Source: Thermoplasmata archaeon
GTDB taxonomy: Archaea; Thermoplasmatota; Thermoplasmata; Lutacidiplasmatales; UBA184
Assembly: GCA_021817605.1 (NCBI GenBank)
Contig: JAKAUN010000002.1
Span: 3,676-67,675, forward strand
DNA: 64,000 nt
Direction of reading: 5' to 3'
The position numbers and the translations under genes were made by a program. Positions 2,871-57,980 of this stretch are shown here, piece after piece (the first letter of the stretch is position 1; every line of letters begins with the position of its first letter). The notes beneath the pieces were generated by a model. The model was given only the letters and a program-made list of their open reading frames with translations. It was not told where the DNA came from and did not search any database.

Positions 2871-4010
2871 TTACGTGCCGCCCGAGCCGACGCCCAGCTG
2901 GGATCTGGCCGCCTCGTTGAGCGGCGAGCGCTCGACCTCGAGCGCGTCGGCGGTGGGGTACTCCTCGACCTCGAAGGCAGGCCAGGGGAGCCGAGCCGCC
3001 ACGCGGCGCAGGCGGGCCGGGGCGAGCTCGACGCGGCGGCGAGCCAGGTCGAGGCGGTAGCTCCCCGTCGGAAGCTTCGAGCGACGCGCCACCCGTGTCG
3101 CCCAACGGCCCAGCTCGCCGACCGGCCCCGCCTCGACCACGCCGAGGACGATCGTGCCGTCCTCGGTGGTCTCGGCAAAGGTCGGGGCCGTCCGTTCGGC
3201 CCTCCGCAGCAGTCGCCGGCGGAGCTGCACGCCGTCCTTGAACCGGGAGGAGCAGTAGTGGACCGGGAGCCCCGGGGGAGCCTCCCGCACGAGACGCTCC
3301 GCCACGGAGCGGCTTCCCCGGACCCCCCAGCCGTTGCGGGCATCGGTGCGGTAGCCGCGGTCGAGCAGCAAGGCCTCGTTGGTCTCGGAGAACTCGAGCT
3401 CGTTGAGGTTGACGAAATCGACCCCGATCTCCCGCAGGGTCCGCAGAAGACGGCGCAGCTCGGCCTCCTTCTCGGGGAGGACGGGGATCTCCACCCCCCG
3501 GCGGATCCCCCAGCGTGGCGCCTCCTCGAGGACCTTGCGGTAGGCGCCTCCCGACGACGCGAGCGGCCCCCAGAGGTAGTGGGGAACGTGGAGGCGGAAC
3601 TCGTCCAGACCCGCGGCGGCGAGCCGCCTAAGCTTCTCGGCGTTGGGCTCGTGCGTGTAGAGATGGATGTGGTGGTCCGGCCCGAACTCGCGCTTGAGCA
3701 GGCGCACGTAGTGCTCCACGCGATCGACGACCCCAAGCGGGTCCCCTCCCGTGATGCCGGTGCCCGCGGCGCCGATCGCCCGGGCCTCCTCGAGGAGGTC
3801 GGAGTCGCTGCGGACCCGCCGTTCGTTGGCGTAGACGACGTCAATCTGGTTGCGTGAGGGGGAAACCGGGCAGTAAAAGCAGCGGAACCTGCAGAGCCCC
3901 GTGACGAAGAGCACCATCTTACGCCCCTCGCCGCACTGCGTGCACGCCGGCGAGAGCGCCCCCCGGTGGCTCGACGCCATCGGCAGAAGCGCAAGGCCCG
4001 TGGTCTCCAT
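2871..4010 (-). CDS. Radical SAM protein, PFL-activating-enzyme-related uncharacterised archaeal family
   Basis: CxxxCxxC motif in GLCRFRCFYCPVS, preceded by a Cys-containing N-terminus (CTQCGEG). The start could be M1 (4010), M11 or M32 (MVLFVTGLC..., 3917). Confidence 0.75.
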   Translation of the reverse strand: METTGLALLPMASSHRGALSPACTQCGEGRKMVLFVTGLCRFRCFYCPVSPSRNQIDVVYANERRVRSDSDLLEEARAIGAAGTGITGGDPLGVVDRVEHYVRLLKREFGPDHHIHLYTHEPNAEKLRRLAAAGLDEFRLHVPHYLWGPLASSGGAYRKVLEEAPRWGIRRGVEIPVLPEKEAELRRLLRTLREIGVDFVNLNELEFSETNEALLLDRGYRTDARNGWGVRGSRSVAERLVREAPPGLPVHYCSSRFKDGVQLRRRLLRRAERTAPTFAETTEDGTIVLGVVEAGPVGELGRWATRVARRSKLPTGSYRLDLARRRVELAPARLRRVAARLPWPAFEVEEYPTADALEVERSPLNEAARSQLGVGSGGT

Positions 4011-14489: not shown

Positions 14490-15911
14490 TCAGAACCCCC
14501 GCTCGAGGATCGAGACGGTCACCGACGAGCCGGTACCGGCGTGGCTGTGGATGGCTCCGCGCTTGGCCCCGGCGATCTGGAGCGTGCCGTCGCCGAAGTG
14601 CTTGTCCACCGTCCCTTGCAGCTGCCAGAGCGCGAAGACGGCCTGCATGAGCCCCGTGGCGCCGACCGGGTGCCCGCAGGCGATGAGCCCGCCGGAAGGG
14701 TTCACGGGGATCGTCCCGGCCTTGGGCACCTCGAGCCCGTAGTCGAGCCCCTTGAGGAACGGCGCTCCGGAGAGGGTGAAGTCGTAGCCTTCGCCGTAAC
14801 GGCAGAGCCCGAGGTCCTCGTAGGTCTGGATCTCGCTCGAGGCGTAGGCGTCGTGCAGCTCGACAAAGTCGAGCTCCTTGATCGGGTTGACGATCCCCGC
14901 CATCCGGTAGGCCTCGAGGCCCGCCGCGCGCCCCGCGCGGAAGGAATGCACACCGGGATAGGAGAGCCCGGCATAGTCGTTCTCGGTCTCGTGGGGGAAC
15001 CGCGGCACCTTGCCGAACGGTCGGTCGGCGAGACGCATCGTGTCGGTGCCGCAGCCGACCCCCGTGACCCGGACCGGGTGATCGGTGAACTCGCGGGCCC
15101 GCGACTCGTCGCAGAGGACCGCGACCGCGGCCCCGTCCGACATCGTGCAGATCTGCTCGCGGGTGAGCGGATAGCTGATCATCTCCGAGGCGAGGACGTC
15201 CTCGACGGTGAGCCGCTTCGGATACTGGGCGTAGGGGTTGTACAGGGCGTTGAGGTGGTTCTTCACCGAGACCCAGCTCATGATCCGCTGGCCCTCGGCG
15301 ATCGCGCGGCGCTGCGCCTCGCGCTCGTCGGTGATCCCGGCGAACTTGCCCCGGCGCAGGTACTCGTAGATGTGCCGGACGACCATGAGCGCGTAGTAGC
15401 CGGTGTAGAAGCCGCCGAGGGGGAAGTCGAAGTTCGTGTCGGAGGCGAGGGCGATGAACTCGTTGCCCTTCCAGGTCGCCACCCGGCTCATCGTCTCGTA
15501 GCCGGCAGCGAGGCAGACGTCCATCCGTCCGCTCGCCACGGCCTCGTAGGCGGCCTGGAAGCACTCGCCGCCGGTCGCTCCGCCCCACTCGATACGGACC
15601 GAACCCTTCGGGTTGAGCCCGAGGTAGTCCTGGACCATGCTCGCCGCCTTGAGCTGCCGGGAGAAATGGTCGGAGAAGTAGGAGATCCGCGAGCCGTCGA
15701 TCCGGTCCCTCGTCAGGTTCGGGGTGTCCTTGAGGGCGTAGTCGTAGGCTTTCTTCACCATCAGGCGGAAGTCCATCCCCGGATGGGCCTTGGCGAACTT
15801 CGTCACCCCGCCCGTAACGAGGTAGACCTTCCTCCCGGTCGACGCATGGGGACTTTCCGGATCGCGCCGCGACTCGGGGCGACGCTCCGGCGATGACGCT
15901 GTGGCGGACAT
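14490..15911 (-). CDS. Thiolase-superfamily protein, SCP-x/archaeal acetyl-CoA C-acetyltransferase type
   Basis: 473 aa; VYLVTGGVTKFAK...GGECFQAAYEAVASG...GHPVGATGLMQAVFALWQL are thiolase hallmarks. The N-terminal ~30 aa before VYLV may not be translated. Confidence 0.85.
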   Translation of the reverse strand: MSATASSPERRPESRRDPESPHASTGRKVYLVTGGVTKFAKAHPGMDFRLMVKKAYDYALKDTPNLTRDRIDGSRISYFSDHFSRQLKAASMVQDYLGLNPKGSVRIEWGGATGGECFQAAYEAVASGRMDVCLAAGYETMSRVATWKGNEFIALASDTNFDFPLGGFYTGYYALMVVRHIYEYLRRGKFAGITDEREAQRRAIAEGQRIMSWVSVKNHLNALYNPYAQYPKRLTVEDVLASEMISYPLTREQICTMSDGAAVAVLCDESRAREFTDHPVRVTGVGCGTDTMRLADRPFGKVPRFPHETENDYAGLSYPGVHSFRAGRAAGLEAYRMAGIVNPIKELDFVELHDAYASSEIQTYEDLGLCRYGEGYDFTLSGAPFLKGLDYGLEVPKAGTIPVNPSGGLIACGHPVGATGLMQAVFALWQLQGTVDKHFGDGTLQIAGAKRGAIHSHAGTGSSVTVSILERGF

Positions 15912-24097: not shown

Positions 24098-24724
24098 GTG
24101 CTCGCCCCCGGGGCCGGTCGCTTTCTTCTGCCGGTCGCCCTGCTCCTTTTCCTCGACCTCGTTCTCCTCCTCCTCGGAACCCCGCCTCTCGGAGCGGCGG
24201 GCTTCGGGCTCGCGGCGGTCCTTGTCGGTCTTTTCGGCTTCTTCGCCGTCTTCTTCCGCGATCCCGAGCGGAGGGTCGGGGAGGGGATCGTTTCCGCCGC
24301 GGACGGCCGCATTCGGGCCGTCGAGCGGCTCGGGGAGCGCTGGCTCGTCTCGGTGTTCATGAACGTCACCGACGTTCACGTGAATCGCCTCCCCTTCGAT
24401 GCGACGGTCGAGGCGATCGACGCTCTGGGCGAGGGGTTCCGCCCCGCCTACCGCCACGACGCGGAGGCGAACGTTAAGCGTCGCTACCGGCTCGCCACGT
24501 CGCTCGGCACGGTGGAGGTCGTCCAGATCACCGGGATCCTGGCGCGTCGCCTGGTCCCGTTCGTCCGGGTCGGGGACTCCGTGGCGAAGGGAGCGCGGCT
24601 CGGCATGATCGTGCTCGGCTCGCGGGTGGACGTGCTGCTGCCGGCGGAGAGGACCGAGCCGACGGTCCGTGTCGGGGACCGGGTCGTCGCGGGGGTCACC
24701 ACGATCGCGAGGGTCCGGCCGTGA
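24098..24724 (+). CDS. asd: Archaeal-type phosphatidylserine (archaetidylserine) decarboxylase proenzyme
   Basis: N-terminal TM segment, FFRDPERRV...IVSAADGRI motif, and an LGS self-cleavage-type motif (MIVLGSRVD) near the C-terminus. ~208 aa, the small PSD type. Confidence 0.75.
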   Translation: MLAPGAGRFLLPVALLLFLDLVLLLLGTPPLGAAGFGLAAVLVGLFGFFAVFFRDPERRVGEGIVSAADGRIRAVERLGERWLVSVFMNVTDVHVNRLPFDATVEAIDALGEGFRPAYRHDAEANVKRRYRLATSLGTVEVVQITGILARRLVPFVRVGDSVAKGARLGMIVLGSRVDVLLPAERTEPTVRVGDRVVAGVTTIARVRP

Positions 24725-25464
24725 CGGACCGCTGGCGTGTCGGCGCGAACCTCGCCACCCTCGGCAACGGCCTTCTCGGAGTCGGCGCGGTCCTCTACAC
24801 GGTCGCGGGCAACAAGCTCTGGGCGATGCTCCTCATCACCCTCGCCATCGGGCTCGACGGACTGGACGGGCTGCTCTCCCGCCGGAGCGGCTCTGCGCCC
24901 GGGGCGTTCGGGCGCATCGCCGACTCGGCGGCGGACGCCGTCTCCTTCGGGGTCGCTCCCGCCGTCCTGGTCGCTGTGCACACCTCGGAGGTCGGCCTCT
25001 GGGCCCCGTACGCGACGCTGACGCTCCTCGCGGCCCTCGTCTACCTCGGCGCCGCCGTCGCGCGGTTGGCCTACTTCACCGCCCGAGCCCACGCGCTCCC
25101 GCACTTCCTCGGCATCCCGAGCCCCCAGGCGGCCCTCGCGGTGATCGTGACGGGGCTGTTCCTCGACACGCCGGCGCTCGCCCGGGTGGACCCGGCCGTC
25201 ACGGTCGCCGTCGTGCTCGCCATCGCCGTCCTCATGCTCGTGCCCGTGCCCTATCCGAAGATCCGGCGCGGGAGCCCGCTGCGCTGGCCGATGGCGACGA
25301 CCGCCGCCTTCGGGGCCCTCGCGCTCGTCCCCCTCCAGTTCCGCCTCGGCCGAGGGAGCCCGCTCTACGACCTCGCCTCCGCGGGGGCCTGGGGGCTCCT
25401 GGTCGGGGTGGCCGCCTATTACCTCGTGGGACCGTTCACGCTGGGTCGGCGAAAGGAGGGCTAG
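24721..25464 (+). CDS. pssA: CDP-alcohol phosphatidyltransferase, probable archaetidylserine synthase
   Basis: Multi-TM. DGLDGLLSRRSGSAPGAFGRIADSAADAV matches the D-x2-DG-x2-AR...G-x3-D-x3-D motif. ATGA overlap with the upstream decarboxylase. Confidence 0.75.
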   Translation: MTDRWRVGANLATLGNGLLGVGAVLYTVAGNKLWAMLLITLAIGLDGLDGLLSRRSGSAPGAFGRIADSAADAVSFGVAPAVLVAVHTSEVGLWAPYATLTLLAALVYLGAAVARLAYFTARAHALPHFLGIPSPQAALAVIVTGLFLDTPALARVDPAVTVAVVLAIAVLMLVPVPYPKIRRGSPLRWPMATTAAFGALALVPLQFRLGRGSPLYDLASAGAWGLLVGVAAYYLVGPFTLGRRKEG

Positions 25465-25467
25465 CAG

Positions 25468-25929
25468 GTGCGGTCGGCACGCTCGTTCCATCGGGCCCGG
25501 CTCAGCGGCCGGGAGGCGCTGCTCTTCGAGGCCGGCATCAAGCTCGGCGGGATCTTCCACCAGTACCTGGGGATCCCGGTGAGCCGCCGGACCTCCCGAG
25601 CGCTCTCCCGCTCGGTCGAGGCGGCGGTCGGCCTCCAGCCGTTCGTCACCCGCGTGCGCGTGACGATCGACCCCTCCCGCGGCGGTCGGCTCGGGCGGCC
25701 GCCGTTCGACTACCGTTACCTGACCGCGGAGATGCTCAGCGCCAAGGTCGAGCTCTCGGACGGCCCCTGGAAGGTCGTCGCGCGCCTCGGCTACCGGGCC
25801 GATCTCCGCTACCCGCTCATGCGCGTCGAGCGGCTCAGTGTCCTCGAGCGCGACCGGCCTAGCGCCGGTCGGCGATCGGCACGTAGGGAAGGTCGGTCGG
25901 GCCGACGTACTTCGCCGTCGGCCGGATGA
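25468..25929 (+). CDS. Small protein resembling the archaeal dihydroneopterin aldolase MptD family (PF04038-like); assignment tentative
   Basis: N-terminal LFEAGIKLGGIFHQYLGIPVS motif recalled from the MptD family. The R-rich C-terminal tail overlaps the convergent citrate synthase 3' end by ~70 nt, so the true stop may be earlier. Confidence 0.45.
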   Translation: MRSARSFHRARLSGREALLFEAGIKLGGIFHQYLGIPVSRRTSRALSRSVEAAVGLQPFVTRVRVTIDPSRGGRLGRPPFDYRYLTAEMLSAKVELSDGPWKVVARLGYRADLRYPLMRVERLSVLERDRPSAGRRSARREGRSGRRTSPSAG

Positions 25930-40428: not shown

Positions 40429-41091
40429 CTACCCGACCCCGCCCGCGCGACGGCCACGCGGGGCGGCGGGAGGCTCCGGCGCGGGGCTCTGGCGTCGCTC
40501 GAGCCAGATCTCGTCGCCGAGCTCGTGGTAGACGGCGTGGTCGGCCATGCCGGTCCCCCGCTCCCCGTGGGGGAGACGGAAGCCCGAGGCCCGGTTGAGG
40601 TTCGGCGAGTAGACGACATCGGCCTCGCCGGCGGCAGCCATCGCCGCGGACTCCTCCCGAGCCAGCTCGAAGATGCGCTCCTTGCGGAACATCCAGTAGT
40701 GGATGCGCCACTCGCGCCCGTCGTAGAGGGTGGTCTCGTCCCGCTCGGTCTCGAGGATCCCGGTGTCCTCCAGCATGTAGAACGTGTCGCGGTCGTCCGG
40801 CTCTAGGACGTTGTCGATGATACGCTCGTTGAAGCCAAAGAAGTTGAGGACGTGGGCAGCGATCGAGCGGGCATCCTCGGCACGCATCCCGTCGTGCCCG
40901 ACGGAGCGGCGGATCGCCTTGGCGAGCGAGTCGAAATCGACCGGCCCGCTCGCGTCGACCAACGTCGCGTCGGTCGGCAGACCCATCCGGGTCTGCGAGA
41001 TGTCCTCCGCGGTCCTCAACGGGACCGGGTTCCTAAGAGTATAATGCGCCGTGCCCTCCGCCCGCGAAGGGCGCCCCCCCGTGCCCGTCAC
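40429..41091 (-). CDS. Hypothetical protein; start may be Met36 at 40986
   Basis: Balanced composition (..NFFGFNERIIDNVLEPDDRDTFYMLEDTGILETERDETTLYDGREWRIHYWMFRKERIFELA..). No family recognised. Confidence 0.4.
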   Translation of the reverse strand: MTGTGGRPSRAEGTAHYTLRNPVPLRTAEDISQTRMGLPTDATLVDASGPVDFDSLAKAIRRSVGHDGMRAEDARSIAAHVLNFFGFNERIIDNVLEPDDRDTFYMLEDTGILETERDETTLYDGREWRIHYWMFRKERIFELAREESAAMAAAGEADVVYSPNLNRASGFRLPHGERGTGMADHAVYHELGDEIWLERRQSPAPEPPAAPRGRRAGGVG

Positions 41092-41850: not shown

Positions 41851-43173
41851 CTACTCCGCGGGAGGGGCGAGGTCGTACTCGCCGCCCTCGGGCGGAAGGG
41901 CCGTGTCGAGCCACGGCCGCAAGGCGCCTTCGGGTTCCCTGCGTCCCGCCGACCCGAGATGGCGGACGAAAGGCCGCGCTCCGATCGGGGAGAGAAGGGT
42001 GGTCGCGACGCCCACTCCCGCGACCACGGTGAACAGCTCGGGGGAGAAGATCCCCCGCACCTCGAGGATGACGGCCATGGCGAGCTCGACCGCTCCCCGG
42101 CTTGCGACCAGGAAGCCGGCGCCGAGCGCCTCGGACGGCGACCAGCCGAACAGGCGGGTCACCATCGCTCCGACGGCGACCTTGGAGAGAAGGGCGAACA
42201 GGCAGAGGGCCGCGAACGAGAATAGGACGAGAGGGGAGGAGACCAGGCTCCTCAGGTTCATGTCGAAGCCGACCAGCGCGAAGAACAGGGGGATGAAGAA
42301 CCCCCAGGTTATCGTATCGAAGACGCGGGCGATCTGGCGGTGCTCGTGGGGCCCGGCGCTCTCGGGGGTGATGAGCAGCCCGGCGTAGAAGGCGCCGACC
42401 AGGAAGGTGAGGCCGAGGGCCTGGGAGTAGAGCGCCGCCCCGAGACCGCTCACCATGAGGATGGCAAAGCCGGCCTCCCGCGAGCGCCAGCTGCCCCGGA
42501 ACCGGGCGACCCAGCGGTCCCAGATGCGCAGGTGACGGAGGCTCCGCAGCCCGTTGTGGACGGCCAGAATGGACGTGAGGAACACCCCCACGGTGAGCAC
42601 CGCGACCGCCACGGCGGTCGTGGTAGAGCCGTGCGCGCCCCAGACGCTCAGGAGGATCGAGAAGGTCGTCACCGCCGCAAGCTCGTTGAGGAGCGAGCTG
42701 TTGAGCAGGGTCGTCCCGAACTTGCTTCCGAGCAGGCCGAACTCCCGCAGCATGATCCCAAGGACGGGGAGCGCCGTGATCGAGATGGTCAGCGCGACGA
42801 AGAGGTCGGTCGTGGTGGAGAACGCCGGATAGAGCAGGTGGACGACCTCGGCCCCGGCAAGGAACGGGGCGACGAACATGGTGATCCCCAACGCCGCCGC
42901 GGGGACGCCGGTCGCGTAGACCTGCTCGGGCGTGACGGCGAGGCCGGCGGTCATCAGGATGAAGAACGTCGCCAGGAACTGCAGTCCCGTGAGCTCCGTG
43001 TTGAGGCTCAGGAAGCCGAGGGGCGCGCCGAGGAGCGTCGGGCCGAAGACGACCCCGACCGCGAGCTGGCCGACCAGCGCGGCCTGCCCGAGCCGGCTCA
43101 TGAGCTCGCCCACGAGCACCGAGCAGGCGACCAGCAGGAACAGCGCGACGATGAACAGCGTCGTGGGGTCCAT
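41851..43173 (-). CDS. Monovalent cation:proton antiporter (CPA2/Kef-NapA type)
   Basis: Met at codon 87 of track ORF 41851..43431: MDPTTLFIVALFLLVACSVLVGELMSRLGQAALVGQLAVGVVFGP... with 12-13 TM helices. Confidence 0.85.
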   Translation of the reverse strand: MDPTTLFIVALFLLVACSVLVGELMSRLGQAALVGQLAVGVVFGPTLLGAPLGFLSLNTELTGLQFLATFFILMTAGLAVTPEQVYATGVPAAALGITMFVAPFLAGAEVVHLLYPAFSTTTDLFVALTISITALPVLGIMLREFGLLGSKFGTTLLNSSLLNELAAVTTFSILLSVWGAHGSTTTAVAVAVLTVGVFLTSILAVHNGLRSLRHLRIWDRWVARFRGSWRSREAGFAILMVSGLGAALYSQALGLTFLVGAFYAGLLITPESAGPHEHRQIARVFDTITWGFFIPLFFALVGFDMNLRSLVSSPLVLFSFAALCLFALLSKVAVGAMVTRLFGWSPSEALGAGFLVASRGAVELAMAVILEVRGIFSPELFTVVAGVGVATTLLSPIGARPFVRHLGSAGRREPEGALRPWLDTALPPEGGEYDLAPPAE

Positions 43174-43444
43174 GCGATCGACCTCCTGTTGTACCAGCTG
43201 ACGGCGAAACGCCCCGGCTCGTCGTCCGCCACCCCCCACGGGACATTCCGGCGGTCGACGGGGTCCGGGCCAGCGCCTTCTTGTGCAGGCGAACCTGCCA
43301 CCCCTTTTATGGGGCGCCTTCCAGGGGGCGGACCGCTGCTTAAGCCGCCGGCGCCCTGCGGACGGGGTGACCTCGCCTTCCGCGCCCCGGCCGCGACGCA
43401 GCAAAGAGACTTCGCCCCCCGGCTCGGCCATCGACGAACGGAGG

Positions 43445-43831
43445 ATGCGCGCGCTCGCCGAGCCGCTGGATGTGCGGTGGAGGTCCCGCGAGCCCTACCC
43501 CCTTCTCGAGGTGCGCAACCCGCTCCGCGGGACGCGCTATCTCGTACTGCTGCCGGCCTACCCCGACCGGGAGAGCGCCCTGTGCACGTGCACCGATTTC
43601 GCCCGGCGGGGCCTGGGAGACTGCAAGCACATCGAGTCCGCGTGGCGTTGGCTCGGCTCCCGTTCCGAGACCGACGACCCGCTCCCCGCCGTGGAGGAGC
43701 GGCCGGCGCCTCCCGCTGTGTGGGAAGAGGTGGATCGCCGCCTTCGTGGTGATCCCCCTCTCGAGCTACGGGACATTCGCGCGCTAGGCGCTCCGGGAAG
43801 GGTGCTCTTCGAGCGGAGAAGCGAGGGCTGA
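43445..43831 (+). CDS. SWIM zinc-finger domain protein
   Basis: YLVLLPAYPDRESALCTCTDFARRGLGDCKHIESAWRW matches C-x-C-xn-C-x-H. Confidence 0.6.
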   Translation: MRALAEPLDVRWRSREPYPLLEVRNPLRGTRYLVLLPAYPDRESALCTCTDFARRGLGDCKHIESAWRWLGSRSETDDPLPAVEERPAPPAVWEEVDRRLRGDPPLELRDIRALGAPGRVLFERRSEG

Positions 43832-44202: not shown

Positions 44203-45912
44203 CTAGGTCGACATCCCCGGCGCGCTCTTGAGCGCCCGGATCTTGTAGTACTCGGGGTCGACGATGACCTCGCCGTTGACGCCCATCGTCTCGATCGTCT
44301 TCAGCTTGAGGCCGCCCTGCGACTTCGCCCGCTGCCAGTCGGGGATCGGGATCGAGAACTTCTTCTCGACCTCGGTCCGGTAGATCGGCCCGGAGTTGTA
44401 CGAGCAGAACGGGATGACCCGCCCGTCCGGGACCGCGTAGTGGATGTCGCAGCGCATCAGCCGCTGGATGTCGTAGTCGTAGGCGTCCTGGAAGTGCATG
44501 TTGCCGATGTAGAGCGTCCTCCAGGTGAACTTCGCGACGGCCTCCTTGTTGCCCTCGGTGAAGATCGAGGCGATCAGCCGCACGCAGTTCTTCTCCGTCA
44601 CGCCCTCCGGCGCCTTGGTGAAGTCGAAGTACTTCGCGACGTCGTGGAGGAGCCGCGCCCCGGCGACCACCGTCCGCACGCGCGAGAACCGCGCGTCGCG
44701 GTACTTCTCGATCATCCCCTCGACGTTCTCGAAGAAGCCGTCGACGTCCATGAACCGCGGCAGCGGGGTGATCTTCTCCCCGTCCTTGGAGACGAAGGCG
44801 AAGGTCGCGCAGCCGCAGCCCGGGTGCGTCGTGAGGGTCATCTTCTCCTCGCCGTGGATGATCGAGGCGAGCTCGGAGATCGGCGCGACCGACGGCACGG
44901 GGAAGAAGTCGGACTTGTCGAAGGGCCCGTCGGTGCAGAGGATGCGGACGAGGTCGGACTGGGTGAACCGCATCTGGAAGCGGTCCTTGTCGGGGATGCG
45001 GGCGGTCAGGGCGACCGGCTGGAAGTTGACGCCGCGCACGACGTCAAGGTTGTCGATCGCGAACTTGACCGTCGGCCAGATCTCCTTCTCGTTGAACCCG
45101 CCGACCAGCGTCGGGACGAGCACGACGGAGAGAGGCTTGTCCGGCTTACCCGCGGCGAGCTCGGAGGCCGGCGAGTGGGTCTCGCGGGCCGCCTGGATCG
45201 CCTTCTGCTTCACCTTGAACAGCGGCACACCACGGACCTTGCGGTAGATCTCGTCGTCCAGACCGTCGAACTGCAGGTAGAGGGTGTGCAGGCCCGCGTC
45301 CCGGGAGGCCTGGGCGAAGCCGGGCTCGTTGGCCACGCGGATCCCGTTGGTCGCGACCTGGATCTGCTTGAAGCCGAGGTCGCGGGACATCGACACCGCG
45401 TCTAGGAACAGCGGAGAGAGGGTCGGCTCGCCTCCGGAGAACTGGACCGCGACGGTGCCGACCGGCTTCTGCTCGCGCAGGGTCTTCAGCATGAAGTAGA
45501 TCTGCTCGCGGGTGGGCTCGAAGACGTAGCCTGCGGCGTTCGCGTTCGCGAAGCAGACAGGGCACTTGAGATTGCAGCGGTTGGTCAGGTCCACCAGGGC
45601 GAGCCCGGTGTGCGACTTGTGGTGGCTGCACATCCCGCAGGTGGTGGGGCAGCCGCGGAACTTGTCGTAGTAGGGGTTCTCGTAGCCGACCCCGTCGTGG
45701 GCATAGACCTCCATCCGCAGGTAGAAGTCCACGTCGTTGGAGATGATGTCCCAGAAGTAGCCGTGGGCTCGGCAGGTCTTCTCCATGATGACCCGGCCGT
45801 CTTTCTCGCGGACGATGGCGGGAATGACCTTGATGCACTCCGGGCAGACCGAGGCGGTCTTCCGGGGGAGGCCCCGCGGGGCCTGGAACTCCTTCATCAC
45901 TCGTGCCGGCAT
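44203..45912 (-). CDS. Radical SAM enzyme resembling tetraether lipid synthase Tes (GDGT/MAS synthase); family assignment tentative
   Basis: 569 aa. N-terminal rubredoxin-like Cys ligands (CPECIK...CRAHG; GCPTTCGMCSHH). CNLKCPVCFANA is a CxxxCxxC radical SAM motif. Further Cys clusters (GCGCATF; CVRL; CDIHY; FCSYNSG) and a long C-terminal domain. Confidence 0.6.
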   Translation of the reverse strand: MPARVMKEFQAPRGLPRKTASVCPECIKVIPAIVREKDGRVIMEKTCRAHGYFWDIISNDVDFYLRMEVYAHDGVGYENPYYDKFRGCPTTCGMCSHHKSHTGLALVDLTNRCNLKCPVCFANANAAGYVFEPTREQIYFMLKTLREQKPVGTVAVQFSGGEPTLSPLFLDAVSMSRDLGFKQIQVATNGIRVANEPGFAQASRDAGLHTLYLQFDGLDDEIYRKVRGVPLFKVKQKAIQAARETHSPASELAAGKPDKPLSVVLVPTLVGGFNEKEIWPTVKFAIDNLDVVRGVNFQPVALTARIPDKDRFQMRFTQSDLVRILCTDGPFDKSDFFPVPSVAPISELASIIHGEEKMTLTTHPGCGCATFAFVSKDGEKITPLPRFMDVDGFFENVEGMIEKYRDARFSRVRTVVAGARLLHDVAKYFDFTKAPEGVTEKNCVRLIASIFTEGNKEAVAKFTWRTLYIGNMHFQDAYDYDIQRLMRCDIHYAVPDGRVIPFCSYNSGPIYRTEVEKKFSIPIPDWQRAKSQGGLKLKTIETMGVNGEVIVDPEYYKIRALKSAPGMST

Positions 45913-45999
45913 ACTTCGGTTCCTCCGTTTCCTGGTCCCTCGTTCCCGACTGGACCAAGAAGCTCACCCATCCCGCCCTACATAATCCATGTGTAGTTC

Positions 46000-46159: not shown

Positions 46160-46744
46160 ATGGCTCCTTCGCGCACCTCCCGTCGGTCGAGCCGCCGCGG
46201 CGGCCGCTCCCGGAAAGCTGGGACCACGCGACGGGTCCGAAAGCCGCCCGTGCCGAAGTTCGTGGGGCGGGACCCTTCCCCTGTGCTGGACCGCTACCCC
46301 CCGCGGGCGCCGCACGAGGGGCGGCCGACGCCCACAGCCGCCTCCGTCGCGACACCGTCGCCGGCACCGAGCGGCCGGGTAGCCCCTCCGGCCCGCGCCG
46401 CGGCCCCCCCTGCCCCCGCCCAAGGGCCGCCGGCCGGCCTCATCCGGCTCGACCGGCCGTTCGACCTCGACGAGTTCTCCCGGCTCCTCGGGGAGACCTC
46501 GATCCGGCTGAAGGTGCCTCGGGAGAACCTCCTGGAGGTGCTCGGGCGCGTTTTGGAGTTCATGGGCTTCGGGATCTACGTCTACGCGATCTCGGTGCGT
46601 CCTGCGCCCGCCGCTCTCCTCAAGGAGTTCGAGGTGGAGCTCCAGCGCGTGGACTACTCTGCCGAGCGGAGCCGCTGGGAGCCGTTCGTGGAGAGGGGGA
46701 GCGCGTCGTCGCCCCCCGGTTCGAGCTCGGGGAGCCCTCCGTAG
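46160..46744 (+). CDS. Hypothetical protein: basic/Pro-rich disordered N-terminus plus ~90-aa globular C-terminal domain
   Basis: C-terminal LIRLDRPFDLDEFSRLLGETSIRLKVPRENLLEVLGRVLEFMGFGIYVYAISV looks structured. Start uncertain. Confidence 0.35.
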   Translation: MAPSRTSRRSSRRGGRSRKAGTTRRVRKPPVPKFVGRDPSPVLDRYPPRAPHEGRPTPTAASVATPSPAPSGRVAPPARAAAPPAPAQGPPAGLIRLDRPFDLDEFSRLLGETSIRLKVPRENLLEVLGRVLEFMGFGIYVYAISVRPAPAALLKEFEVELQRVDYSAERSRWEPFVERGSASSPPGSSSGSPP

Positions 46745-47118: not shown

Positions 47119-48141
47119 TCAGCCCGGGGTCGGCTGGCGAACGACGGCCTTGCGCCCGTAGCGCCAGGACCCCTCGATGGCGTAGAGGCGCCGCAGCCTC
47201 GTGTCGACCCGGCCGCCTAGCCGGATCTCACCCGGCTCCGTATCGGTGAGGGCCACCGTGGCTCGGAGACCGTCGGCGAGCGCGACGAGCGCCACCCCGT
47301 AGGGCCCGACAGCGGCGACCTGCTCGTCGAACTCGGTAGGCTGGCCTCCGGGGCCGATCCAGGTGAGCGCGACGACCTCGAGCCCGTCTCGGGGGAGCGA
47401 CTCCGCGGTGAGCGTGTCCGCCCGGCCGCAGCGGCGGCAGCGACCCCGGGAAGGGAAGCTGAGTGTCGAGCAGGAGCGGCATCTCTCGCCGGAGAACCTC
47501 CAGCGGCTGGCGACGGCCTCGAGGTAGCTCGCCCGCGGGACGTAGGCGCCCTCGGAGACGGCCGCCGACGGGAACGCCGGCGGTCCCTGGGGGGGCGGAG
47601 GACGTCCCACGGCAGGGCTAGCCGCCCAGTCGCCCACCCAAGCTTTCGCCGCGGCTGCGTCGGCCCGTTGGGCGATCGGGACGAGCGCGGCGAGCTCCTG
47701 CCCCGGGAGGGGAGCTGTCCCCGCGGGGAGAAGGCTCGCCGTCGAGGAAGGGAGCTCGTCGACCAGGAGGGCAAAGGCCCCCTCGCCCGGGGGCGGGACG
47801 GCCGACGCGGGGGAGCCCGAGGCCTCCTCCACGGCACCGACCAGCAGTTCCGGTCCGGCTCCGTGGGAGGCACGTTCGAGGGCGTCGGCAAGGGGGGAGG
47901 CGGTCGGGTCGGGCGCGGGAACCACCGTCACGCTCTCGCCGAGGATCCCGGCAAGCAGCTCCGGAGGGAGGGCCCGTGCGGCGCCGACTTCCCGGATCGT
48001 CCAGGCGGGTGGCCTCGAGGTGCTGCCGGCTAGTAGCCGCTCAAGCGCCGTCGCCACCAGCGTGAAGGCGTCCTCGTCCCAGGAGCGGACGCGGCGCCGG
48101 CCGTCGGTGCGGGTGGGGAGGTAGGCGGCGGCCCGCAGCAC
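47119..48141 (-). CDS. DUF35 OB-fold/zinc-ribbon protein with ~200-aa low-complexity N-terminal extension
   Basis: C-terminal CRSCSTLSFPSRGRCRRCG zinc ribbon plus OB fold. The N-terminus AAAYLPTRTDGRRRVRSWDEDAFTLVATALERLL recalls the start of HMG-CoA synthase, but the rest is an A/P/S-rich linker. Confidence 0.7.
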   Translation of the reverse strand: MLRAAAYLPTRTDGRRRVRSWDEDAFTLVATALERLLAGSTSRPPAWTIREVGAARALPPELLAGILGESVTVVPAPDPTASPLADALERASHGAGPELLVGAVEEASGSPASAVPPPGEGAFALLVDELPSSTASLLPAGTAPLPGQELAALVPIAQRADAAAAKAWVGDWAASPAVGRPPPPQGPPAFPSAAVSEGAYVPRASYLEAVASRWRFSGERCRSCSTLSFPSRGRCRRCGRADTLTAESLPRDGLEVVALTWIGPGGQPTEFDEQVAAVGPYGVALVALADGLRATVALTDTEPGEIRLGGRVDTRLRRLYAIEGSWRYGRKAVVRQPTPG

Positions 48142-48157
48142 CCCGCGCGTCGTCCTC

Positions 48158-49321
48158 TCACCCCACCGAGTAGATCGTCACGGCGCAGGTCGCCCCGGCC
48201 CCGCCGACATTGTGCGTGAGCGCGCTTCGGGCCCCCGGGACCTGGCGGGGGCCGGCGCTCCCGCGGAGCTGGTGGAAGACCTCGTAGGCCTGAGAGACGC
48301 CCGTCGCTCCGATCGGATGGCCCTTGGCCTTGAGCCCCCCGTCGGGGTTGACAGGGATCCGGCCGTCGCGGCGCGTCGCCCCCGAGAGGGTGAGGGCTCC
48401 GGCCTCCCCACGGCCGGCGAAGCCGAGGTCCTCGAGGGCGAGGAGCTCGGCGATCGTGAAGCAGTCATGGACCTCGAGGAAGGAGATCGACCCACGCTCG
48501 GCCCCGGCGGAGCGGAAGGCGGTCTCGGCGGCCCGTCGGCTCGCCTCGAAGCCGGTGAGCTCGGCCCGCTCCTGCACGGCGAGGCGGTCGGAGGCCGCCC
48601 CGATCCCGTCGACGTAGACCGGCGTGTCGGTGTACCGTTTCGCCGTTTCGGTCGAGGCGAGGAGGACGGCGGCGGCCCCGTCGCTCACCGGACAGCAGTC
48701 GTAGAGCCCGAGCGGATCGGCGACCCGGGGGCTGCGCAGGGCCTGTTCGCGCTCGATGCGCTTCTGGAAGTGCGCGTTCGGGTTGAGCGCGCCGTTCTCG
48801 TGGTTCTTGACCGCGACCTCGGCGAGGGCCTCGCGCCCGAGCCGGTAGCGGTCGAGATAGGCCGAGGCGAGAAGCCCGTAGACCCCGGCGAAGGTGAGCC
48901 CGGCCTGGCGCTCCCACTCGGTGTCGCCCGAGACACCGAGCCAGAAGCGGCGGCGGGCGTTGGAGACGTCGGTCATCTTCTCGAGGCCCGCGACGAGGAC
49001 GAGGTCGGCCGACCCCGAGGCGATGGCGTGGACCGCCTCGTGAAGCGCAAAGCCGCCGGACGCGCAGGCGTTCTCGACCCGGACGCAGGCCAGCCCGGGG
49101 ACGCCGAGCTCCTCGGCGAGCAGGGCGGAGGAGTTGCCGATCTGCCAGCCGCCGAAGCCCAGCGACGCGAGGTAGCTGCGGTCCACCGCCGACGGCTCGA
49201 AAGCGCGGTCGACGCTGCCGAGCGCCTGGCGCACCGCGCTCCCCAGAAGGGCCCGGGGTCCCTCGGGAAGGACGCCGAACCGGGTGTGCCCCGCCCCGAC
49301 GATCGCCGCGCGATGCACCAC
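48158..49321 (-). CDS. Archaeal acetyl-CoA C-acetyltransferase (thiolase)
   Basis: 387 aa. AAIVGAGHTRFG, NACASGGFALHEA (Cys active site), GHPIGATGVSQ, NVGGAGATCAVTI. Confidence 0.9.
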   Translation of the reverse strand: MVHRAAIVGAGHTRFGVLPEGPRALLGSAVRQALGSVDRAFEPSAVDRSYLASLGFGGWQIGNSSALLAEELGVPGLACVRVENACASGGFALHEAVHAIASGSADLVLVAGLEKMTDVSNARRRFWLGVSGDTEWERQAGLTFAGVYGLLASAYLDRYRLGREALAEVAVKNHENGALNPNAHFQKRIEREQALRSPRVADPLGLYDCCPVSDGAAAVLLASTETAKRYTDTPVYVDGIGAASDRLAVQERAELTGFEASRRAAETAFRSAGAERGSISFLEVHDCFTIAELLALEDLGFAGRGEAGALTLSGATRRDGRIPVNPDGGLKAKGHPIGATGVSQAYEVFHQLRGSAGPRQVPGARSALTHNVGGAGATCAVTIYSVG

Positions 49322-49387
49322 GTCTTCCCCGTTGCACGAACCGTCTTAACGCCTCAGTCGCTGCGCCGGCCGGGCAGCGGGGCCAGG

Positions 49388-49963
49388 GTGGGCGACGATC
49401 GTCCGTTGGTCGTGGGAGTCACGGGAGCGAGCGGAGCCCCGATCGCCGTGCGGGTCCTCGAGGCCCTGCAAGGGGCCGGCGTGCCGGTCGCCCTCGTCCT
49501 CTCGGAGGCCGGGCGGGCGGTCCTCCGGGCCGAGACCGACCTCGAGCCGCTCGCCGTCGAGCACCTCGCGGGCGTCACCTACCGCGACGACGACATCGCC
49601 GCCCCGATCGCCAGCGGCTCGCGCGCCACCCGAGGGATGGTCGTGGTTCCCTGCTCGGCGTCGACCGCGGCGAAGATCGCCGTCGGGCTCGCCGACACCC
49701 TGCTGACCCGGACCGCCTTCGTCCACCTCAAGGAGCGACGGCCGCTCGTCCTGGTTCCCCGCGAGACGCCGATGCCCAGTGTCCTCCTGAGGCACCTCGC
49801 CGCGCTCAGCGAGATGGGGGCCGTCGTCCTGCCGGTGAGTCCCCCTTACTACCTGCGGCCGAGGTCGCTCGCGGACCTCACCGACTACATGGCCGGCAAG
49901 GTCCTCGACCACGTCGGAGTGCCGCACCAGCTCTACCGTGGCTGGCGCGAGCCCGAGGAGTAG
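49388..49963 (+). CDS. ubiX: Flavin prenyltransferase UbiX-like (prenyl-FMN synthase)
   Basis: GTG start. PLVVGVTGASGAPIAVRVLEAL...VALVLSEAGRAVL...MVVVPCSASTAAKIAVGLADTLLTR. Confidence 0.85.
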   Translation: MGDDRPLVVGVTGASGAPIAVRVLEALQGAGVPVALVLSEAGRAVLRAETDLEPLAVEHLAGVTYRDDDIAAPIASGSRATRGMVVVPCSASTAAKIAVGLADTLLTRTAFVHLKERRPLVLVPRETPMPSVLLRHLAALSEMGAVVLPVSPPYYLRPRSLADLTDYMAGKVLDHVGVPHQLYRGWREPEE

Positions 49964-54377: not shown

Positions 54378-55181
54378 CTAGGCCCGCACGGCCATCACCG
54401 GGCAGGGAGCCGCCCTAAAGAGCGCCTCGAGGAAACGCCGCGTCAGCAGCCGCCCGCCGGCGAACTCCTCCTCGCCGACGATCACCAGCCCGTAGCGCTC
54501 CGCCGCGGCGGCCTGGAGCATGAGCTCGGGGAGGCGGCGGCGTCGGCCGAGCATCGCGGAGGGGAGCGGGCTGACGCGCCTCATGATCGGCACCCCTCGC
54601 GCGGTCCAGTCCTCGCCCGGGGCGGCCGCGGCCCGTCCGGCCGACGCTCCGACCGCGAGCGCGATCACCTGGACCCCGCCGGCCTTGACCGAGAGCTCCT
54701 CGGCGAGGGCGAGCGCCCGCGGCGGGGGGCTCTCGCGGAACGTGGGCAAAAGGATGCGCGGGAGAGCGTCGGTCGCCAGGGCGAGGCGGTTGACGACCAG
54801 CACGTTGGCGCGGGCGTGCTGGAGCAGCGCGCTCGCCGTCCGGCCGACGAACGGGTTGCGGCTGCGCCGGTCGCCTCGCAGCGTGAAGAGGATGGCATCG
54901 ACCCCGTGGGCCTCGGCGCTCTCGAGGATCTCCCCCGCGACGTCGGAGGCCGCGCGCACCTCGGGCTCGACGCGGATGTCGAGGACGGCGCCGGCCTCGT
55001 GCGCGGGGACGACCAGGTTGACGGACGCCCGCCACTCGCGCGTCACCTCCGGGAGGGTCGTGGTCGGGATGACGTGGAGCACGCGCACCTCGCCGTCCGG
55101 CTCCAGCAGCCGGGAAGCGAAGCGGACGAGCGGCTCGACCTCGGCTGCGACCTGGACGGGGACGAGGATCTTGCGGTACAC
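54378..55181 (-). CDS. Tandem universal stress protein (UspA) domain protein
   Basis: Two USP-like halves (MYRKILVPVQVAAE...ANVLVV and LPRILLPTFRESPP...CPVMAV). Confidence 0.8.
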   Translation of the reverse strand: MYRKILVPVQVAAEVEPLVRFASRLLEPDGEVRVLHVIPTTTLPEVTREWRASVNLVVPAHEAGAVLDIRVEPEVRAASDVAGEILESAEAHGVDAILFTLRGDRRSRNPFVGRTASALLQHARANVLVVNRLALATDALPRILLPTFRESPPPRALALAEELSVKAGGVQVIALAVGASAGRAAAAPGEDWTARGVPIMRRVSPLPSAMLGRRRRLPELMLQAAAAERYGLVIVGEEEFAGGRLLTRRFLEALFRAAPCPVMAVRA

Positions 55182-55182
55182 G

Positions 55183-55845
55183 CTAGCACTTCCCTACGAG
55201 GCTCAGCAGAGCCATGTCGAGCTCAAGAACGTTCACGAAGGACTCGCCGAGGTAGGGAAGGGGTGGGGAGCTAATGTGGGCGTTCACCAGCGCGAGGACC
55301 TCCGCGACGGAGAGGTTGTTCTCCTGGGCGACCCGGGGGACCTGGACGAGGACGGCCTCGGGGACGAGGTCGGGGTCGACGGAGGAGGCGGACGGAGCGG
55401 CGTACCAGAAGGGGACGGTCGCATTGACCGAGAGGTTGCCGTAGAGACGCATGTAGTCGATCGTCTCGTTGAGCAGGCGGCCAAGAGCCGGGTCGCTCGG
55501 CCCGGGAGGGACCGCGGCGCCGAGAGTGGTGTTGTAGTCGGTGAGCGACGGACGGGCCCAGAACAGCGACGGGCCGAGCGTGCCGGCCGAGAGGTTCTGC
55601 GCGATGTCGACCGAGCCGACCACGGTCCCGTTCGGGCAGCGCAGCAGCGAGCCGCCGGCGCTCCCCGGGACCAGGAGCTCCGCCACGGCGCTCACCGCCA
55701 GCGGGTAGACGACGCCGGAGAGGAGGAGGGCGAGGACGAGGAAGATCCCGGCGGCCCGTGCGTGGGTCCTCAGCCGGTGCTCGGTCGGGACCGCCGGCTC
55801 GGTGGGCGGGCCGAGAGGCGCCGGCGGGCCCCGCGGGGCGCTCAC
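55183..55845 (-). CDS. kdpC: K+-transporting ATPase subunit C
   Basis: GTG overlapping the kdpB stop (GTGA). After a Pro-rich 25-aa N-terminus: AAGIFLVLALLLSGVVYPLAVSAVAELLVPGSAGGSLLRCPNGTVVGSVDIAQNLS is the KdpC signature. Confidence 0.8.
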   Translation of the reverse strand: MSAPRGPPAPLGPPTEPAVPTEHRLRTHARAAGIFLVLALLLSGVVYPLAVSAVAELLVPGSAGGSLLRCPNGTVVGSVDIAQNLSAGTLGPSLFWARPSLTDYNTTLGAAVPPGPSDPALGRLLNETIDYMRLYGNLSVNATVPFWYAAPSASSVDPDLVPEAVLVQVPRVAQENNLSVAEVLALVNAHISSPPLPYLGESFVNVLELDMALLSLVGKC

Positions 55846-57977: not shown

Positions 57978-57980
57978 GGA

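Follow-up and report, generated by a model that had tools for sequence, protein, structure and literature searches.

The tes gene and its locus

The window, by which we mean the whole 64-kb stretch of DNA that was analysed, carries on its reverse strand an intact open reading frame (ORF) that begins with ATG and encodes 569 amino acids followed by a stop codon, the size given in the first-pass annotation. A Shine-Dalgarno-like element precedes it.

44203..45912, minus strand: tes coding sequence, predicted orthologue of tetraether lipid synthase (Tes/GDGT-MAS), from the ORF and the NCBIfam, PDB and Foldseek matches
45922..45926, minus strand: GGAGG, Shine-Dalgarno-like, 9 nt upstream of the tes ATG, read from the sequence

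The ATG start is supported by the N-terminus MPARVMKEFQAPRGLPRK, which the tes product has in common with the homologues P0001, P0003 and P0005 in the alignment. Because both flanking ORFs lie on the opposite strand, tes looks like a single-gene unit. Its neighbours are a Na+/H+ antiporter gene, small ORFs without known function, and a thiolase gene together with a DUF35-like gene. No transmembrane helices were predicted in the Tes protein, for which the 19-residue Kyte-Doolittle mean peaks at 1.08.

Assignment to the Tes family

The NCBIfam equivalog model NF045702, 'tetraether lipid synthase Tes', matched the protein with 569.1 bits (E 7e-171), well above its curated cut-off of 450 bits, and the alignment covers positions 1-485 of the 486 in the model and residues 18-522 of the query. 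Among solved structures, the best match was the crystallised GDGT-MAS of Methanocaldococcus jannaschii, MJ0619 (PDB 7TOL/7TOM; phmmer E 1.4e-135, query residues 12-534), and the alignment with MJ0619 takes in the C-terminal cluster domain of the query. BLASTP against MJ0619 gave 42% identity over 522 columns with an E-value of 2e-151. These values lie beyond the thresholds by which Zeng et al. recognised Tes (E < 1e-50 and identity > 30%), the comparison being with the proven MJ0619 alone. The Tes family was thus the best match, as the first-pass annotation had proposed. The outcome that it had named as contrary evidence, a best match to another radical-SAM subfamily with a C-terminal domain unlike that of Tes, was not found: the NCBIfam models for MoaA, PqqE, viperin and SPASM proteins reached only the core (residues ~106-248), with 23-56 bits.

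In Pfam, the protein matched Radical_SAM (PF04055, 2.2e-19) and Zn_ribbon_HMPTM (PF23545, 1.1e-16). The cysteine motifs that had been listed beforehand are all present, namely C23-x2-C26 followed by C47, C88-x3-C92-x2-C95-S-H-H, C113-x3-C117-x2-C120, and the C-terminal cysteines (C366/C368, C443, C488 and C503). Since both Pfam domains and the full-length Tes model (7e-171) were recovered, these motifs are evidently not a product of chance. Judged by its sequence, the ORF is a full-length orthologue of Tes/GDGT-MAS.

Domains, metal ligands and SAM-site residues

The following elements can be placed on the protein, all encoded on the minus strand.

45739..45867, minus strand: rubredoxin-like zinc-ribbon domain, residues 16-58 (Pfam PF23545, 1.1e-16)
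45619..45651, minus strand: N-terminal auxiliary [4Fe-4S] motif, residues 88-98, C88-x3-C92-x2-C95 plus H98, mapping onto MJ0619 C73/C77/C80
45058..45588, minus strand: radical-SAM core, residues 109-285 (Pfam PF04055, 2.2e-19)
45553..45576, minus strand: C113-x3-C117-x2-C120 motif inside the radical-SAM core
45127..45174, minus strand: lineage-specific insertion of ~16 residues, 247-262, as compared with MJ0619 and with Methanomassiliicoccales Tes, from the alignment
44404..44817, minus strand: C-terminal auxiliary-cluster region, residues 366-503, with C366, C488, C503, the labile M472 and Y492
44206..44310, minus strand: C-terminal tail of ~35 residues, 535-569, with the motif T-M/I-G-VNGEV-I/V-VD, from the alignment

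Conservation of the ligands was scored across 119 homologous sequences, and every metal ligand described for MJ0619 (PMC9433317) is kept in the protein and near-invariant among these homologues. The predicted iron ligands C23, C26, C47 and H50 reproduce the C-x2-C-x20-C-x2-H spacing exactly, are invariant in the 119 sequences, and map onto C9/C12/C33/H36, the ligands of the rubredoxin-like iron site of MJ0619 (PMC9433317). C88, C92, C95 and H98 are likewise invariant. The N-terminal auxiliary [4Fe-4S] cluster of MJ0619 is held by three cysteines and a conserved histidine, for which no residue number was given (PMC9433317); we assign this ligand, as a prediction, to H98, the counterpart of MJ0619 H83.

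Residues that contact SAM or 5'-deoxyadenosine are F121, G161, Y212, D216, R227, Q298 and R305, identical to F106, G145, Y195, D199, R210, Q268 and R275 of MJ0619. The sole change at a contact position is from Ser271 in MJ0619 to Ala301, where the contact is made through the backbone. In the C-terminal region, C366, C488, C503, M472 and Y492 correspond to C338, C455, C470, M439 and Y459 of MJ0619, of which M439 and Y459 were described as completely conserved (PMC9433317). C366 and Y492 are invariant in our set, and M472, C488 and C503 are each kept in 118 of the 119 sequences. This conservation suggests C366, C488 and C503 as the ligands of the C-terminal [4Fe-4S] cluster.

Predicted fold

The AlphaFold2 model of the Tes protein (pLDDT 83.8, pTM 0.88) was compared with known structures by Foldseek. 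It aligned with 7TOM/7TOL over all four domains with an E-value of 6e-56, a target-normalised TM-score of 0.91-0.92 and an r.m.s.d. of ~3 Å over 515-527 columns. The next fold was MoaA, which covered only the core (TMq 0.33). The modelled structure thus matches the four-domain fold of GDGT-MAS. The insertion was modelled with high confidence (pLDDT 91-95 in the blocks of 241-260), and the C-terminal tail, in which a helix spans 553-563, with moderate confidence.

Host and conservation of the locus

The window has a GC content of ~70% and contains archaeal genes for aEF-1alpha, proteasome alpha, Pelota, diphthine synthase and the ribosomal proteins S13, S4 and S11. The 80 closest syntenic loci that were retrieved came from soil and peat Thermoplasmata metagenome-assembled genomes; among these is Ca. 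Lutacidiplasma silvani, in which Tes shows 91-96% identity. Seventy-eight of these loci bear the label Thermoplasmata or Lutacidiplasma, one Methanobacteriota, and one (L053) only 'bacterium'. The high GC content raised the possibility of a bacterial, Acidobacteria-like origin, a finding that would have mattered for brGDGTs; this was rejected in view of the archaeal housekeeping genes and the labels of the 78 loci. Horizontal transfer, prompted by a dip in GC content to 0.656 at 44-46 kb, was also rejected, because the GC3 of tes is 0.96, in line with the other genes of the window, and because relatives show synteny at this locus.

Across the 80 loci, the median amino-acid identity of Tes is 93.7%, as against 43-82% for the neighbouring genes, which indicates strong purifying selection on Tes. 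Such constraint fits the report that a tes deletion was not obtainable in S. acidocaldarius (PMC8941075).

The Lutacidiplasmatales are the former TMEG group and are widespread in acidic soils and peat. We found no lipid study in the literature on TMEG or Lutacidiplasmatales, and the genome paper on the order is silent on lipids and GDGTs (PMC9287336).

Lipid-related genes elsewhere in the window

Several genes that could be connected with lipid metabolism are found in the window.

14490..15911, minus strand: thiolase-family gene
24098..24724, plus strand: phosphatidylserine decarboxylase family gene (Pfam PF02666, 3e-31)
24721..25464, plus strand: CDP-alcohol phosphatidyltransferase gene, archaetidylserine-synthase-like (Pfam PF01066, 9e-13)
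47119..48141, minus strand: DUF35/ChsH2-like OB-fold gene (Pfam)
48158..49321, minus strand: thiolase gene (NCBIfam 'thiolase domain-containing protein' only)
49373..49963, plus strand: UbiX-type flavoprotein gene, divergent (Pfam)

The pair at 24098..25464 is best matched by the NCBIfam models for phosphatidylserine decarboxylase, archaetidylserine decarboxylase and archaetidylserine synthase, but no score reaches the curated cut-off of its model, and the pair serves as context only. The genes at 47119..49963 could possibly take part in isoprenoid precursor supply. HMG-CoA synthase is absent beside the thiolase/DUF35-like pair, where the archaeal mevalonate-entry complex would have it, and the gene upstream, on the other strand, is that for UbiX. 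The first-pass annotation had described the window as enriched for membrane-lipid genes. The asd/pssA-like genes, the two thiolase genes and the UbiX gene are indeed present, but they are only loosely co-located with tes and the enrichment was overstated, because the asd/pssA-like pair lies 19 kb away, the thiolases receive only generic names, and genes for geranylgeranyl reductase, ferredoxin and Grs are all missing next to tes. A lipid operon at tes was rejected on this last ground. Neither GrsA nor GrsB was found within the window, in which only two ORFs have a CX3CX2C motif in a plausible coding frame: tes itself and a 379-aa radical-SAM protein at 2871..4010 without a B12-binding domain.

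Proposed mechanism

By analogy with the M. jannaschii enzyme, from which all steps are taken, the radical-SAM [4Fe-4S] cluster (C113/C117/C120) would cleave SAM reductively to generate a 5'-deoxyadenosyl radical, and this radical would attack a fully saturated phytanyl tail in an archaeal glycerophospholipid, taking a hydrogen from the tail's terminal carbon. The C-terminal [4Fe-4S] cluster (C366/C488/C503, and M472 as the labile fourth ligand) would then hold the substrate radical through a C-S bond to one of its sulfides. A second SAM would produce a radical on the second tail, allowing the two sp3 carbons to join and complete a C40 biphytanyl chain. A pair of archaeol lipids coupled twice in this way would yield GDGT with GTGT as the intermediate, and coupling inside one lipid would give macrocyclic archaeol. 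Electrons are presumably relayed by the rubredoxin-like iron site at the surface and by the N-terminal [4Fe-4S] cluster.

Discussion

The sequence comparisons and the structural model lead us to conclude that tes very probably encodes the Tes/GDGT-MAS of an uncultured high-GC soil Thermoplasmatota archaeon that is kin to Ca. Lutacidiplasmatales. We regard the orthology, the conservation of ligands and SAM-site residues, and the predicted fold as established. The annotation is an ordinary and sound one, which brings neither new chemistry nor a new type of system.

Activity is known for several members of the family. In vitro, MJ0619 formed macrocyclic archaeol as well as GDGT (Lloyd et al. 2022, PMC9433317), and either Maeo_0574 or MA_1486 was enough for M. 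maripaludis to make GDGT (Zeng et al. 2022, PMC8941075). The protein described here shares with MJ0619 the rubredoxin-like domain, the N-terminal [4Fe-4S] domain, the radical-SAM core and the C-terminal [4Fe-4S] domain, as well as the metal ligands, the SAM-site residues except at Ala301, the labile Met and the conserved Tyr, with 42% identity from end to end. However, it is 70 residues longer and has a 14-residue N-terminal lead, the 16-residue insertion at 247-262 and the 35-residue C-terminal tail, and it comes from a mesophilic soil heterotroph with high GC content, whereas M. jannaschii is a hyperthermophilic methanogen. With MA_1486 of Methanosarcina acetivorans and Maeo_0574 of Methanococcus aeolicus, it has a common family through the NCBIfam equivalog model. 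The gene environments are different, as MA_1486 adjoins ferredoxin and geranylgeranyl reductase genes (PMC8941075), whereas here an antiporter gene, small ORFs and the thiolase/DUF35-like genes surround tes.

Outside the clade, the nearest Tes proteins are those of Methanomassiliicoccales and other Thermoplasmata, with ~48-51% identity and with the same domains and ligands, which is consistent with vertical inheritance of tes inside Thermoplasmatota. Most of these Tes proteins have ~517 residues and lack the insertion and the C-terminal tail, both of which are present here; the two are missing from MJ0619 as well. We considered these two elements as unique features of the clade and rejected this idea because tails of a similar kind are found in further Tes homologues, with ~46-51% identity.

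A member of the Tes family does not necessarily make GDGT. MA_1114, a bona fide Tes homologue, gave no GDGT and ~0.03% macrocyclic archaeol in M. maripaludis (PMC8941075), MJ0619 itself yields both products (PMC9433317), and the present clade carries an insertion and a tail foreign to MJ0619. The protein could be a paralogue of the MA_1114 kind that makes mainly or only macrocyclic archaeol, or couples weakly or differently, so that no GDGT monolayer is formed. We consider this improbable, since the protein passes the curated cut-off for the Tes equivalog and a syntenic orthologue occupies the locus in all 80 of the retrieved relatives under very strong constraint. In cultured Thermoplasmatota, among them Thermoplasma, Ferroplasma and Methanomassiliicoccus, GDGTs dominate the membrane, which also counts against a role of this kind. 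Moreover, the authors of the MA_1114 experiment allow for poor expression as the cause of their result (PMC8941075).

A function in methanopterin biosynthesis, where the '7,8-dihydro-6-hydroxymethylpterin dimethyltransferase', a radical-SAM methylase of class D, would methylate C7 and C9 of a pterin, is suggested by the JGI name of P0001, P0009, P0124, P0125 and others of the 90% cluster that holds this protein, by the Pfam domain Zn_ribbon_HMPTM, whose name derives from that of the dimethyltransferase, and by an archaeal-type dihydroneopterin aldolase gene (PF04038) at 25468..25929, which implies pterin metabolism in the host. The name, however, traces to the first assignment of MJ0619, which Lloyd et al. 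report that they could not corroborate and after which MJ0619 was established as GDGT-MAS both structurally and in vitro (PMC9433317). Given also that the lineage has been described as an organoheterotroph with genes for aerobic respiration and not as a methanogen (PMC9287336) and that the pterin gene lies 18 kb from tes, such a function is very hard to credit.

The idea that only the N-terminal modules are Tes-like, in a TrsS-type (seleno)protein or a MoaA/PqqE/SPASM-type maturase, draws on a match to the TrsS model NF045646 (320.9 bits), in which the zinc ribbon, auxiliary-cluster motif and radical-SAM core align at residues 18-338, and on the weak core matches noted above, yet it is exceedingly improbable and appears essentially refuted by the full-length Tes match, as the TrsS score falls below the cut-off of 490 and covers only positions 2-306 of 441 in the model and the N-terminal 60% of the protein, the MoaA-like structural match is confined to the core with TMq of at most 0.33, and the C-terminal domain, which is of the Tes type and unlike that of TrsS, aligns with GDGT-MAS and retains C366, C488, C503, M472 and Y492.

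The orthology of tes suggests that the protein is catalytically active, that GDGT is its main product and that the host makes GDGTs, and hence the host would probably have a monolayer membrane. The Tes identity corrects a weak or outdated public annotation, in which members of the cluster of 567 sequences to which this protein belongs go by '7,8-dihydro-6-hydroxymethylpterin dimethyltransferase' or simply by 'radical SAM protein'. A further outcome is a genome-based prediction for an uncultured order that is common in acidic soils and peat, whose members may build membrane-spanning tetraether lipids. This prediction is useful for assigning the sources of isoprenoid GDGTs in terrestrial proxy work and fits the acid-tolerant lifestyle proposed for Lutacidiplasmatales. 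More tentatively, and with somewhat more doubt than confidence, we suggest that the Lutacidiplasmatales, with a single Tes of ~94% identity across genera, might be a substantial and overlooked source of isoprenoid GDGTs in soil and peat, and that the insertion and the tail might alter membrane docking or the product spectrum. If Lutacidiplasmatales are such a source, this would bear on how GDGT proxies in soil and peat are read.

Family assignment and predicted fold

The minus-strand open reading frame at 44203..45912, found exactly as the first-pass annotation had described it, encodes 569 amino acids from an ATG start, and its product is the tetraether lipid synthase (Tes, GDGT-MAS) homologue proposed there. 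The protein scored 569 bits against the NCBIfam equivalog NF045702 'tetraether lipid synthase Tes' (curated cut-off, 450 bits), covering model positions 1–485 of 486. Pfam searches placed a radical-SAM core at residues 109–285 (2e-19), preceded by a Zn_ribbon_HMPTM domain at residues 16–58 (1e-16). The sole strong match among solved structures was GDGT-MAS of Methanocaldococcus jannaschii (MJ0619; 7TOL/7TOM), with an E-value of 1.4e-135 over query residues 12–534, and BLASTP gave 42% identity to MJ0619 over 522 columns (E 2e-151). A better match to another radical-SAM subfamily, the outcome that would have counted against this proposal, was not seen. TrsS, the second-best NCBIfam family, reached 321 bits against its curated cut-off of 490, with coverage confined to the N-terminal 60% of the sequence, and the MoaA, PqqE, viperin, and SPASM models matched the core only (≤56 bits); TrsS and other subfamilies were thus rejected for falling below curated cut-offs and lacking a C-terminal match.

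An AlphaFold2 model computed from a 35-sequence alignment (mean pLDDT 83.8, pTM 0.88) retrieved 7TOM and 7TOL as top Foldseek matches in the PDB, with an E-value of 6e-56, target-normalised TM of 0.91–0.92, and r.m.s.d. of about 3 Å over 515–527 columns. The next structures, MoaA, BlsE, and SuiB, matched the core only (TMq ≤0.33). No transmembrane helix was predicted in the Tes sequence.

Metal sites, active site, and possible mechanism

MJ0619 has four metallocofactors: a rubredoxin-like iron with ligands in the pattern C9-x2-C12-x20-C33-x2-H36, an N-terminal [4Fe-4S] cluster held by C73/C77/C80 and a conserved His, the radical-SAM cluster of the CX3CX2C motif, and a C-terminal [4Fe-4S] cluster with the labile Met439 (Lloyd et al., PMC9433317). 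When the query was aligned with MJ0619 and 117 homologues from the database, all mapped cofactor residues proved invariant or nearly so.

Predicted cofactor ligands of the window Tes, from alignment to MJ0619
C23, C26, C47, H50: rubredoxin-like iron
C88, C92, C95, H98: N-terminal [4Fe-4S] cluster
C113, C117, C120: radical-SAM cluster
C366, C488, C503, M472: C-terminal [4Fe-4S] cluster

The N-terminal Cys motifs had been described accurately in the first-pass annotation. The conserved residues behind its 'C-terminal Cys clusters' are also present, but they are three dispersed Cys that jointly hold one predicted cluster. Residues listed as 5'-dA/methionine contacts in MJ0619 (F106, G145, Y195, D199, R210, Q268, and R275; PMC9433317) are all kept, and the 'completely conserved' Tyr459 of the same study corresponds to Y492. 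The sole difference among contact residues is Ala301 in place of MJ0619 Ser271, whose contact is backbone-mediated.

By orthology with MJ0619 (PMC9433317), the window Tes would reductively cleave SAM to a 5'-dA radical; attack of this radical on a saturated phytanyl chain would remove a hydrogen from its terminal carbon, and the resulting substrate radical would be caught through a C–S bond to the C-terminal cluster. Another radical, derived from a second SAM and acting on a second tail, could then allow sp3–sp3 coupling to a biphytanyl chain. Two such couplings between two lipids would give GDGT through the intermediate GTGT, and coupling inside one lipid would give macrocyclic archaeol.

The clade of the window Tes differs from MJ0619 and most Methanomassiliicoccales Tes by a 16-residue insertion (247–262) and a 35-residue C-terminal tail in which the motif VNGEV(I/V)VD is conserved. 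Some other Tes homologues (46–51% identity) also carry comparable tails, and these segments are variants within the family, not a novel architecture.

Gene layout and host

The features around tes are as follows.

40429–41091, minus strand: DUF6015 protein
41851–43431: Na+/H+ antiporter, beside tes
43283–43831, plus strand: small ORF convergent with tes
44203–45912, minus strand: tes
46160–46744, plus strand: ORF divergent from tes

Because plus-strand ORFs lie on both sides, tes appears to form a unit of its own; the layout is reproduced by an independent gene call, made for an ENA contig with an identical Tes protein. A GGAGG precedes the ATG by 9 nt, and close homologues share the predicted N-terminus. 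The convergent ORF, which carries a SWIM-like CxC...CxH motif (CTCTDFARRGLGDCKH), had no match in Pfam or NCBIfam; it occurs in 25 of 80 related loci with about 51% conservation, and as a shorter, 128-residue version in the independent gene call.

The window is clearly archaeal despite its GC content of about 70%, containing genes for aEF-1alpha, proteasome alpha, LonB, Pelota, diphthine synthase, a Hef-type helicase, and an S13/S4/S11 ribosomal cluster; about 69% GC is documented for Lutacidiplasmatales (Sheridan et al., PMC9287336). Total GC falls to 0.656 at tes, which reflects amino-acid composition because the third codon positions are as GC-rich as those of other window genes (0.58/0.42/0.96 for positions 1/2/3). 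A foreign origin was rejected on the same ground.

Conservation among relatives

A scan of species-representative genomes yielded 80 loci with Tes 91–96% identical, labelled Thermoplasmata or Lutacidiplasma (78), Methanobacteriota (one), and 'bacterium' (one). The last (DAIDCO010000004.1) encodes a 94% identical Tes within the Thermoplasmata gene order. Many of the isolate names suggest a soil or peat source, and Ca. Lutacidiplasma silvani AcS3-62 is included. Synteny with these loci extends over the tes flanks, where DNA identity is about 72–76%.

Across the 80 syntenic loci, the median amino-acid identity of Tes was 93.7%, compared with 43–82% for its neighbours: 82% for the DUF6015 protein (62 loci; second most conserved in the neighbourhood), 72% for thiolase, 67% for Pelota, 63% for diphthine synthase, and 59% for the Na+/H+ antiporter. 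Within the clade, Tes is thus far more conserved than every neighbour, yet its identity to the nearest Tes proteins beyond the clade, those of Methanomassiliicoccales and other Thermoplasmata, is only about 50%. The latter pattern is consistent with vertical inheritance, and the former points to unusually strong purifying selection. Such constraint fits a core membrane function and the failure to obtain a tes deletion in S. acidocaldarius (PMC8941075).

The window Tes might instead resemble MA_1114, the Methanosarcina acetivorans homologue that gave no GDGT product in Methanococcus maripaludis. We disfavour this reading: the equivalog score counts against it, as does the fact that each retrieved relative has tes as a syntenic orthologue under strong constraint, and cultured members of the Thermoplasmatota have GDGT-rich membranes.

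Lipid genes and other genes in the window

The first-pass annotation had also proposed an enrichment of membrane-lipid genes, and the genes it named are all present, together with a DUF35-like gene.

14490–15911: thiolase
24098–24724: PS-decarboxylase family gene (asd)
24721–25464: archaetidylserine-synthase-like CDP-alcohol phosphatidyltransferase (pssA-like)
47119–48141, minus strand: DUF35-like gene
48158–49321, minus strand: thiolase
49373–49963, plus strand: UbiX-type flavin prenyltransferase-like flavoprotein (PF02441, 1e-39)

None of these genes shares a transcription unit with tes, and the arrangement is a loose co-location, not a lipid cluster. The asd and pssA-like matches fell below curated cut-offs, the thiolases received generic names only, and a window search found no geranylgeranyl reductase, ferredoxin, HMG-CoA synthase, or Grs gene near tes. 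The UbiX-type gene, which runs divergently from the thiolase/DUF35-like pair and is masked by an overlapping 583-residue ORF in the longest-ORF listing, could possibly be tied to a prFMN-dependent step of an archaeal mevalonate pathway.

Directly downstream of the asd/pssA-like pair lies an archaeal, MptD-like dihydroneopterin aldolase (25468–25929, plus strand; PF04038, 1e-27), which indicates that pterin cofactor synthesis occurs in this lineage, not described as methanogenic. An MptD-type aldolase 18 kb from tes lends little support to reading the window Tes as an 'HMPT dimethyltransferase', the JGI name for cluster members, which stems from the original MJ0619 assignment that Lloyd et al. 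could not corroborate (PMC9433317).

Several other genes were observed.

2871–4010, minus strand: second radical-SAM protein (379 residues, motif CRFRCFYC), with generic Pfam Radical_SAM and Fer4_12 matches only and no NCBIfam family match
18347–22240, minus strand: 1297-residue Ser/Thr/Gly/Ala-rich protein with internal repeated halves, a faint beta-helix match, a hydrophobic signal-like N-terminal segment, and a hydrophobic C-terminal stretch; probably a surface or S-layer-type protein
29168–29989, plus strand: SAM hydroxide adenosyltransferase (DUF62; PF01887 and PF20257), with no evident link to tes
54378–55181 and 55842–59693, minus strand: KdpA-/KdpB-like potassium-transporting P-type ATPase subunits, assigned by eye from translation and adjoined by a universal-stress-protein gene

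The Kdp-like genes and the Na+/H+ antiporter belong to ion homeostasis, which fits a life in acid soil.

Significance

The literature already covers the Tes family with its structure and mechanism, and a curated HMM recognises the window protein. Two points are modestly new. The 567 members of this Tes cluster carry, in public records, either the generic name 'radical SAM protein' or the outdated '7,8-dihydro-6-hydroxymethylpterin dimethyltransferase', and we found nothing on lipids or GDGTs of Lutacidiplasmatales in the searchable literature on the order. The abundant acid-soil and peat archaea of this group may be an overlooked source of isoprenoid GDGTs.
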